Part shown: piece after piece, positions 41,373 through 42,106 of the stretch
Layout of the letters: the number at the start of each line of letters is the position of its first letter
Position numbering within the stretch: position 1 is the stretch's first letter
Assembly (NCBI GenBank): GCA_028873795.1
Contig: JAPPNP010000051.1
Location: forward strand, 71,641-135,640
Origin: Chloroflexota bacterium
GTDB taxonomy: Bacteria > Chloroflexota > UBA11872
Direction of reading: 5' to 3'
Length of the DNA: 64,000 nt
Program-made: the position numbers and the translations under genes
The notes under the pieces: model-generated
Database searches by the model: none
What the model saw: only the letters and a program-made list of their open reading frames with translations
What the model was told of the DNA's origin: nothing

Positions 41373-41542
41373 TCCGATTCTCGTTTCCGTTGTTCATCAC
41401 ACAGACTCCTGCCGACATGGGCGGGGCAGGATGGCATTGACCGCCGGAACACAGGCAGTCCATTCGCTTGGTCGATGGCGACGGAGTTTTCGGCGTTCCC
41501 AACATCCGAACCGCACAGCAGGGAGATATATACAGACTGGTA

Positions 41543-41563
41543 CTTATCGATCCCATCGATAAG
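41543..41563. promoter_or_regulatory. Perfect palindrome CTTATCGAT-CCC-ATCGATAAG in AT-richer stretch upstream of the HK-RR operon
   Basis: Inverted repeat read directly; adjacent GATATATATAC -10-like stretch; ~170 nt upstream of HK start. Confidence 0.35.
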
Positions 41564-41756
41564 TCTGTAGCGACTGTTACCTTAGCATCACGGGTCGAGG
41601 ACGGCGGTTCCCGGGAGAGACTCGGCCGTAGTACGGTCGCCTGGGTTATCCGAGTGCGCGGTGGTCGGCCGGAGCGGGGGGTGGCATCTCAACACCGGTC
41701 CCAACCGCCGGCGTGGCCGGCGACGGGCGAAGTCTTCCGGATCTGCAAAGGCCTTC

Positions 41757-41785
41757 GGGAGCCCACATCCGGAATTGAACCGGGA
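41757..41785 (-). other. tRNA 3'-end-like fragment (T-arm CCGG-TTCAATT-CCGG plus acceptor-like TGTGGGCTCC) without matching 5' half
   Basis: Minus strand reads GGTTCCCGGTTCAATTCCGGATGTGGGCTCCC; no complementary acceptor 5' strand found upstream, so not an intact tRNA. Confidence 0.35.
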
Positions 41786-42106
41786 ACCTCGTCCTCACCA
41801 CGGATTTCGCTCTCAGCGCTGTGGCGCCCATCTGGGAGAGCCGAGCGAGACGCCTCAGTTTCCGGAGTGGTGGGTCTCCGGCGGTCTCCAGTTGCCCCCC
41901 ACTACCGTCGTGCACGGGCGTGCAGGCGACCCGTAGGGGTTGGGAACCGTCCTCCGTGACCGTGGACACAACCCGCTAGTCTCCACGAACGGAAGGCCCA
42001 TGCGGCCCGAGTCAGCATGAGCCATTATCTCGTCATCGAAATGATTGACGACGAATAGTTTTGGGGCTATATTCCGCATGTCATCTGATGACCTAATGAC
42101 CTCACG

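Follow-up and report, generated by a model that had tools for sequence, protein, structure and literature searches.

The subject of this study is a 64,000-nt stretch of contig JAPPNP010000051.1 from an uncultured Chloroflexota bacterium (henceforth the window) and, within it, the 734-nt interval at positions 41373-42106, which separates two divergent operons. On its left lie the genes for a HisKA_3 histidine kinase (HK) and a LuxR-type response regulator (RR), and on its right the gene for a GntR/FCD regulator heads a run of genes for a peptide ABC transporter and hydantoinases (Table 1). The interval contains a tRNA-like repeat unit of about 120 nt, which abuts a block of genes that is replaced by other genes in a related locus. 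The window is identical to the ENA metagenome scaffold ROBB21-1 (SAMN13943215) and to an independent Logan assembly of SRR10996925; because independent assemblies reproduce it, the gene arrangement is not an assembly artefact. The arrangement also recurs in independent assemblies among the compared loci (designated by L numbers), namely L001/L002 and L004/L019/L020. Judging by the names of the samples, these Chloroflexota appear to be sponge-associated.

A first-pass annotation of the interval had pointed to a minus-strand tRNA-like string, a palindrome and two AT-rich patches, all of which do exist in the sequence. The string (GGTTCCCGGTTCAATTCCGGATGTGGGCTCC, the reverse complement of 41758-41788) comprises a T stem and loop, CCCGG-TTCAATT-CCGGA, at 41768-41784, with four of the five stem pairs formed and one C-A mismatch, followed by the acceptor 3' strand TGTGGGC at 41761-41767 and then TCCC. 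It thus displays the parts of a canonical tRNA 3' end, that is, a 5-bp T stem, a 7-nt TTCRANN loop, a 7-nt acceptor strand, a discriminator and an optional CCA. In a related locus (copy A of L004, described below) this end is textbook-like, CCCGG-TTCAATT-CCGGG-TGTGGGC-T-CCA, with CCA in the place of the CCC of the window. The string exceeds chance: with up to three mismatches the T-arm/acceptor 28-mer has no second match in the window and none in 100 shuffles, and with up to seven its sole other match in the window is at 36084-36111 on the same strand. A scan of about 306 kb of other loci with this 28-mer gave matches limited to homologous copies of the unit.

For comparison we used orthologues of the GntR gene with 86-93% identity in Chloroflexota metagenome-assembled genomes (MAGs), around which about twenty loci were fetched. 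These show that the string is not the isolated tRNA 3' fragment that it had been taken for; it is the end of a unit of about 120 nt (unit A) that is conserved whole in five copies. When the window is compared to L004 with BLAST, homology runs leftwards from the GntR operon and ends at 41755, and a further copy in L004 (copy B, 4757-4879) is 74% identical to window 41761-41874 with zero indels. A hidden Markov model (HMM) of three copies, run with nhmmer, recovered those three copies with E values of 5e-36 to 9e-37, and also found an independent full-length copy, L013 B (L013 2714-2833; E 6e-18), and a 5' half-copy next to the GntR gene of the same locus (L013 A), the 3' half of which is deleted. 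Once rebuilt from four copies, the HMM detected a full-length unit in L027 (L027 U; E 1e-34) and in L028, which carries the same unit sequence as L027. The full copies come from four lineages, all of them Chloroflexota MAGs, and are only 74-88% identical to one another, their identical runs now spanning just 12-17 nt. Between orthologues, the T arm and acceptor are 84-92% identical and the other 95 nt of the unit 70-81%, the latter being no better conserved than the adjacent spacer. Certain oddities, namely a 3-nt D-like loop, a bulged acceptor and a 5' hairpin, are common to all five copies, and this shared degenerate architecture indicates that they predate the duplication of the unit.

No copy was found in L003, L005, L014-L017 or L021-L026, and a blastn search of the window with the 734-nt region gave no further one. 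Phage and plasmid collections likewise held nothing that matched the region or the unit, and scans of IMG/VR with the 3'-end pattern and with the unit pattern gave no hits. A pattern scan of JGI metagenomes returned one match, L012, which was rejected as a chance occurrence inside a coding sequence. A heavily degraded form of the unit, which has lost the T loop but kept the acceptor GGCGTAGGCG, is discernible in L003 (~9590-9790) and L026 (~7583-7800). In both of these loci the ABC operon lies directly upstream of GntR, and hence the unit decays where nothing has been inserted.

The locus L027 provides an empty site: here a single uninterrupted unit is situated between the stop codon of the ABC-ATPase of a peptide ABC transporter (...ACHFPE-stop) and the divergent GntR gene. 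On its 5' side lies the same spacer as at window 41881-42037, and the trailer on its 3' side (GGTCGCGATCATGCGG...) matches that of L004 copy B at 43 of 43 positions. Positions 1-721 of L027 align with L004 4157-4877 and positions 605-2819 with L004 9655-11869; the two alignments overlap only within the unit, a hallmark of target duplication around an insert. The L004 copies A (9651-9774) and B accordingly bound an insert of about 4.8 kb, the cargo of which consists of genes for ankyrin, sulfatase and GMC oxidoreductase proteins.

In the window, the corresponding block is flanked by unit A and by a second, degenerate copy (B'), and its GC fraction is 0.58-0.63 over 38-42 kb against about 0.67. 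Copy B' and the 3' end of L013 B are orthologous, but the sequence 5' of the T arm has been replaced in B': upstream of the T arm it runs into the 3' flank of an ankyrin gene. The L004 counterpart of this flank closes with a B'-like remnant from which the T loop has been deleted. A deletion between two T-arm repeats, those of B' and B, explains the state of B' in the window.

The inserts of both the window and L004, which look foreign, join right after the last acceptor base (...GTGGGC/TCC...), and three distinct incoming downstream contexts all begin with TCC (Table 1). Past the acceptor end, shuffle tests revealed no significant similarity between window A and L004 A (516 of 1000 shuffles scored equally well) or between L004 B and L013 B. 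A weak similarity at 30-35 nt beyond the acceptor, suspected from a MAFFT alignment, was dropped as it failed this test. As similarity ends there, the two copies of the unit lead into different DNA in each lineage, with the break at the acceptor end. The junction is placed to one base, with the unit starting at 41761 and the insert running from 41760.

Table 1. Features of the locus in window coordinates, and the junctions at the 3' end of the unit in the compared copies (a slash marks the junction)
Feature	Position	Strand	Basis and remarks
Variable block of 5.65 kb between unit A and B'	36112-41760		Pfam; replaced by other genes in L004
Copy B', degenerate direct repeat of T arm, acceptor and TCC (CCCCGGTGCAATCCCGGGTATGAGCTCC)	36084-36111	-	Far end of block
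Ankyrin-repeat genes of the block	36221-36973; 37248-38639		Pfam
LuxR-type response regulator (RR)	39410-40243	-	Pfam
HisKA_3 histidine kinase (HK)	40086-41372	-	Pfam
HK leader within the block	41373-41756		
Perfect palindrome ACTTATCGAT-CCC-ATCGATAAGT, 10-nt arms	41542-41564		AT-rich HK/RR leader, adjoining a TATATAT stretch
Junction, TCCC after the acceptor	41757-41760	-	Four-way alignment; TCCA in L004 A; GGTC and ABC-ATPase trailer in L027 and L004 B
Unit A, tRNA-like repeat unit of ~120 nt	41761-41880	-	3' end is T arm and acceptor; upstream, degenerate mini-cloverleaf and ~50-nt hairpin
Chromosomal spacer 5' of the unit	41881-42037		blastn, alignments; common to L004, L013, L027, partly L021, L025
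Weaker divergent promoter match, TCGTCA-16-GATAAT	42051-42024	-	Promoter scan
Sigma-70-like promoter of the GntR/FCD gene, TTGACG-17-TATATT	42045-42073	+	Promoter scan
Dyad GTCATC-T-GATGAC (GTCATCTGATGAC)	42081-42093		Between promoter and GntR start codon
GntR/FCD regulator gene	42107-42931	+	Followed by peptide ABC transporter and hydantoinase genes
Junction, L027 U			...GTGTGGGC / GGTCGCG
Junction, L004 B			...GCGTAGGC / GGTCGCG
Junction, L004 A			...GTGTGGGC / TCCAGATACC
Junction, window A			...ATGTGGGC / TCCCGAAGG
Junction, L013 B			...ATGTGCGC / TCCTCTAAG
Junction, window B'			...GTATGAGC / TCCTCTCGG

The variability of the sequence past the 3' end of an otherwise conserved unit is also what one would see at the terminus of a transposable element, for instance at a right end of the IS200/IS605 type or in a miniature inverted-repeat element (MITE), with a subterminal hairpin that mimics the T arm, and an IS240 transposase does occur in the same hotspot in L022. 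We regard this origin as very improbable: no transposase or TnpB gene adjoins any copy, nhmmer and 28-mer scans uncovered no extra copies in the 64-kb window or in the ~306 kb of other loci, terminal inverted repeats are lacking, and copy A has as its 5' flank a stretch of conserved chromosomal spacer that the empty site shares. A template/variable repeat pair of a diversity-generating retroelement was likewise rejected, as the mismatches between copies are of all types and there is no reverse transcriptase gene.

We propose that the unit is probably a decayed tRNA-like locus that served as a recombination (att-type) site and now persists as a scar. A circular element with a homologous copy of the unit, in effect a long attP-like segment, would have recombined with the chromosomal unit, either by the site-specific action of a tyrosine integrase, as at tRNA genes, or by a Campbell-type homologous crossover, and the event would have duplicated the unit. 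Subsequent deletions between the repeats, together with ordinary decay, may then have trimmed copy B of the window to 28 nt and also removed any recombinase gene. On this proposal the present-day region is a scar that also holds the ordinary promoter and operator sequences of the two flanking operons. If there were a separate intact tRNA ending in ...GGTTCAATTCCGGGTGTGGGC(T)CCA, it would fit a tRNA-derived att relic.

In islands at tRNA genes, a regenerated target and a displaced fragment mark the two island ends (PMC4383910). The present locus resembles such Islander-type islands in several respects. Direct repeats of the segment from the T arm to the 3' end (here 41758-41785 and 36084-36111) bound cargo that varies between strains, and a relative (L027/L028) has an empty site with both flanks matching. 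Further, it is at the acceptor end that the junction falls, the fuller of the two copies is the one towards the conserved flank, the short fragment being distal, and the GC content of the block is slightly lower. It differs from them in that the target is no recognisable, functional tRNA or tmRNA, the island has no integrase among the open reading frames (ORFs) scanned, the distal repeat is the whole unit of about 120 nt in L004 and L013, and the repeats have diverged by 12-26%.

The ORFs scanned for such an enzyme comprised four of gene length and one spurious one in the block, the precomputed genes of the 32-42 kb region and, from the leftmost 32 kb of the window, twenty large ORFs. No integrase, recombinase or transposase domain was detected among them. 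With Pfam, the ORFs of the L004 island and of the block in the window gave just ankyrin, response-regulator, histidine-kinase, sulfatase and GMC domains. The att boundary suggested in the first-pass annotation is largely borne out by the junction, the variable block to its left, the empty site in L027 and the second 28-nt copy 5.65 kb to the left, although the ORFs scanned lack a recombinase domain and the target is not a bona fide tRNA.

Integration in tRNA and tmRNA genes reportedly falls into classes by sublocation, as set out by Williams in 2002. The attP of phage HP1 shares a segment of about 180 bp, spanning tRNA genes, with its attB; the unit is comparable in that what flanks the insert on either side is a duplicated long homology of about 120 nt and not a short core, and it is unlike HP1 in having no phage genes, no integrase and a degenerate target. 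With tRNA pseudogenes and fragments of decayed islands the unit shares an isolated canonical T arm and acceptor, the lack of a functional cloverleaf and the absence of any call by programs at default settings; it is set apart from them by the same degenerate architecture in all five copies. The feature is a fresh example of a well-known kind, its one small oddity being that the target is not a recognisable tRNA.

A serious alternative is that the junctions arose by a Campbell-type crossover or by ectopic recombination between copies of the unit. Carried to its end, this means that there was no site-specific element, the unit being a duplicated pseudo-tRNA that forms a dispersed repeat of low copy number, and that the breaks reflect ectopic homologous recombination or indel turnover in a plastic intergenic hotspot with conserved operons on either side. 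It would be in keeping with the lack of a recombinase among the ORFs scanned. Also, both copies flanking the L004 insert are of full length and about equally distant from the L027 copy (81-88%), which is what a Campbell-type crossover or a segmental duplication would give. The breakpoints of the relatives are scattered along the spacer, the DNA to the left of B' is ordinary chromosome, and the state of B' in the window is readily explained by the deletion described above. We nevertheless consider it fairly unlikely, since three independent downstream contexts start at the same base with TCC, the end of the repeat coincides precisely with a tRNA-type acceptor end that has a CCA in one copy, and the copies now have only short identical runs in common. 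It differs from the att-type explanation mainly in the enzyme that acted.

Several other observations, besides the lack of a recombinase, weigh against an att-type origin. In none of the copies, nor in their consensus, was the target recognised as a tRNA or tmRNA, and a tRNA origin is one that we infer from the T arm, the CCA of a single copy and a weak cloverleaf. The unit of L027 is a mosaic of A-like and B-like sites, such that a clean crossover point within the unit, sought from the informative sites relative to L004 A and B, had to be abandoned. That the copies share only 74-88% identity marks the events as old; moreover, the known full copies number only five, from four lineages. Synteny with the relatives breaks at 41906, ~41975 (L025, by eye), 42037, 42045, 42062, 42073, 42077 and 42080, and hence the whole spacer is plastic and not just the end of the unit. 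Homologues of the HK/RR pair lie upstream of GntR, without the unit, in L023 (4279-5914) and L024 (1577-3212); these belong to a more distant lineage with a unit-free spacer of 1.7 kb, and are 72% identical in nucleotide sequence to window 39413-41048. The pair may therefore be older at the locus than the insertion model implies. Finally, leftwards of B' the DNA resembles ordinary metabolic chromosome, with genes for metabolic enzymes, a sigma factor, transporters and the like.

We next consider whether the unit could be an RNA gene. At default settings ARAGORN called no tRNA or tmRNA in the whole window, in L004, L013 or L027, or in the consensus of the copies. Searches with Rfam yielded nothing at the gathering score and just noise at E<=10, with no family in any copy. 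The Rfam tRNA model aligns to the T arm only (12.2 bits, where the gathering score is 29; E 6.6), the tmRNA models reach at most 8 bits, and the permuted-tmRNA model attains its 8 bits on the T arm only. A weak match to RF04354 recurs on the opposite strand, across the complement of the T arm and acceptor, and was read as adding nothing. There is no canonical D arm (a 7-11-nt loop with GG) or anticodon arm (U33 and a conserved anticodon): the loop of the D-like hairpin is 3 nt long, and the anticodon-like loops vary from copy to copy and can be drawn in two frames. For a tmRNA, detection by program, a 5' GGGG strand pairing with the 3' end and a tag frame are all wanting. Thus, the statement of the first-pass annotation that this is not a tRNA or tmRNA gene holds. 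Its further statement that no 5' acceptor, D or anticodon arms exist is slightly too strong, as the sequence 5' of the T arm permits one to draw a degenerate 5' acceptor strand, a miniature hairpin resembling a D arm and another arm resembling that of the anticodon.

That the programs overlooked a genuine, if divergent, gene for a tRNA or tmRNA would agree with the canonical T loop, with the CCA of L004 A and with the tRNA that ARAGORN, relaxed to a threshold of 80%, calls at the same place in three copies. These calls, however, disagree in their boundaries and in the anticodon (Thr-GGT, Thr-AGT and Pro-GGG), and the same settings produce many obvious false calls. The relaxed tmRNA calls (60-80% threshold) are spurious and inconsistent in strand. 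Across thresholds of 50-95%, with introns and permuted tmRNAs allowed, relaxed ARAGORN gave mutually inconsistent calls and obvious false positives, and none was retained. When the empty default runs and the partial Rfam alignments are added to the absence of a G3-U70 pair and of a conserved coding piece past the acceptor, which also led us to reject a permuted tmRNA, this possibility is effectively refuted. A claim that the anticodon loop descends from a tRNA-Thr(GGU) was likewise dropped, the consensus being still uncalled at default thresholds. We conclude that the unit is a decayed tRNA-like sequence.

Applied to four copies, RNAalifold yields a mini-cloverleaf preceded by a hairpin of about 50 nt. 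In this cloverleaf the acceptor stem has 6 bp and one bulge, the D-like stem 4 bp and a loop of 3 nt, and a further arm 5 bp and a loop of 7 nt; the T arm completes it. This raises the possibility, which we hold to be unlikely, that the unit is a living gene for a non-canonical tRNA-like small RNA on the minus strand, possibly transcribed from the divergent promoter at 42051-42024, and that the insertion beside it is secondary, as with islands beside real tRNA genes. Consistent with this, the cloverleaf-like fold after the hairpin emerges independently from RNAalifold, and 90% of the cells pair across the five copies versus 33-49% with slid partners, though the structure was derived from the same sequences. 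About twenty G-U cells would be C-A mismatches on the opposite strand, paralogues differ by zero indels over 115 nt, the T arm is the best-conserved segment, and there is a -10/-35-like match on the minus strand. Against it, covariation among the five copies is not significant, with double changes at two pairs, a result matched by 128 of 500 shuffles, and the covariation term of RNAalifold is unfavorable; this also undercuts the non-coding RNA that had been offered at first as an alternative to an integration scar. Single-sequence folds are no better than those of shuffles (z -1.3 to +0.8), and the 5' 95 nt evolve no slower than the neighboring spacer. Copies have been lost or truncated: L013 A lacks the 3' half and B' of the window the 5' 90 nt, a deletion has taken the T loop from L003, L026 and the B' remnant of L004, and most relatives have no unit at all. 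Further, the canonical contact between the D and T loops of tRNAs is impossible with a 3-nt D loop.

A bolder version, which we find more doubtful still, holds that the unit is a living, undescribed tRNA-like small RNA, consisting of a 5' hairpin and a miniature cloverleaf, that doubles as an integrase-independent exchange site for cassettes with cargo of a symbiosis-type kind, in this case ankyrin proteins, sulfatases and sensor kinases. For the whole region, fold z-scores were -1.8 on the minus strand and -3.1 on the plus strand, which, coming from just 20 shuffles, we do not take as evidence. The spacer 5' of the unit, at 75-80% identity, shows no compensatory changes, and a structured RNA in 41881-42030 was rejected, there being no compensatory change across four lineages.

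Regarding protein-coding potential, none of the four ORFs tested within 41373-42106 matches a Pfam family, and the substitutions among copies of the repeat unit lack 3-periodicity; together with stop codons in some copies, this led us to reject a coding region or pseudogene, and the region looks non-coding, in line with the earlier view that it holds no plausible protein. The AT-rich patches at 41510-41580 and 42000-42100 are as described, each with 46.5% GC against 67% for 41581-41999. The second of these corresponds to the GntR promoter and an operator-like dyad. The promoter scan returned two sites (Table 1) versus 0.2 expected, and the GntR promoter block is about 93% identical to that of L004. 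The dyad at 42081-42093 is unchanged in L003, L004, L013, L021, L025, L026 and L027, and has one change in L005. An inverted repeat conserved between the promoter and start codon of a regulator gene is what is seen in the autoregulatory operators of the GntR/FadR type, and from knowledge of the GntR family the dyad is probably an operator of this kind.

The palindrome at 41542-41564 exists as described, and its presumed operator-like role fares less well: in L013, the closest relative, five of the 20 arm positions differ, and do so non-symmetrically, in a region that is 82% identical overall, so that the dyad is not conserved. Such palindromes number six in the window against about 1.7 expected, and a role of this one as the operator of a LuxR-type regulator is possible but unsupported. 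Elsewhere in the window a near-identical perfect palindrome, CCCAGGCTGC-NN-GCAGCCTGGG, recurs at 4-25, 4543-4564 and 6077-6098 (with arms CCCACGCTGC at position 4), and may be a REP-like element or a shared terminator. Another AT-richer gap of about 650 nt, without an ORF of gene length, lies between permease and aminotransferase genes at 34102-34760, where the GC content of the 34-35 kb bin is 58%. In the block itself, the N-terminal region of the ankyrin protein encoded at 37248-38639 on the minus strand has two copies of a cysteine-containing segment of about 100 aa (…NYEGE(D/N)FC(Q/K)DTPSWPNGTYLGQMHPYHV(D/N)FYRG…CVTWAQDQRNSAIRGIRELGYTV…), to which no Pfam family matches.

The interval upstream of GntR is hypervariable in twelve related loci, with cargo that ranges from defence genes and toxin modules to two-component systems and transporters. 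In general, the hotspots of horizontal transfer in chromosomes sit between conserved core genes. The present locus is like them in having unrelated cargo upstream of the GntR operon in nearly every relative, and unlike them in that some of its junctions coincide with the end of a specific tRNA-like repeat. In L022 (1109-6394), the hotspot carries genes for an OLD-type TOPRIM ATPase and a UvrD helicase, a Gabija-like pair, along with the IS240-family transposase mentioned above. In L017, two identical full-length tRNA-Gly(GCC) genes (951-1025 and 3031-3105) bound a block of about 2 kb that includes a PIN-domain gene and lies several kilobases upstream of the same GntR operon; the block has the appearance of a small island by which an entire tRNA gene is carried or regenerated.

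The value of these findings is local, the kind of feature being well known. They explain a 730-nt gap in the genome of an uncultured Chloroflexota bacterium as a decayed insertion site accompanied by two ordinary promoter regions. They also indicate that att scars of the tRNA type can persist where tRNA-finding programs stay silent. Moreover, the hotspot upstream of the operon for the GntR regulator, peptide transporter and hydantoinase would be useful for studying how symbionts acquire genes for interaction with their hosts.

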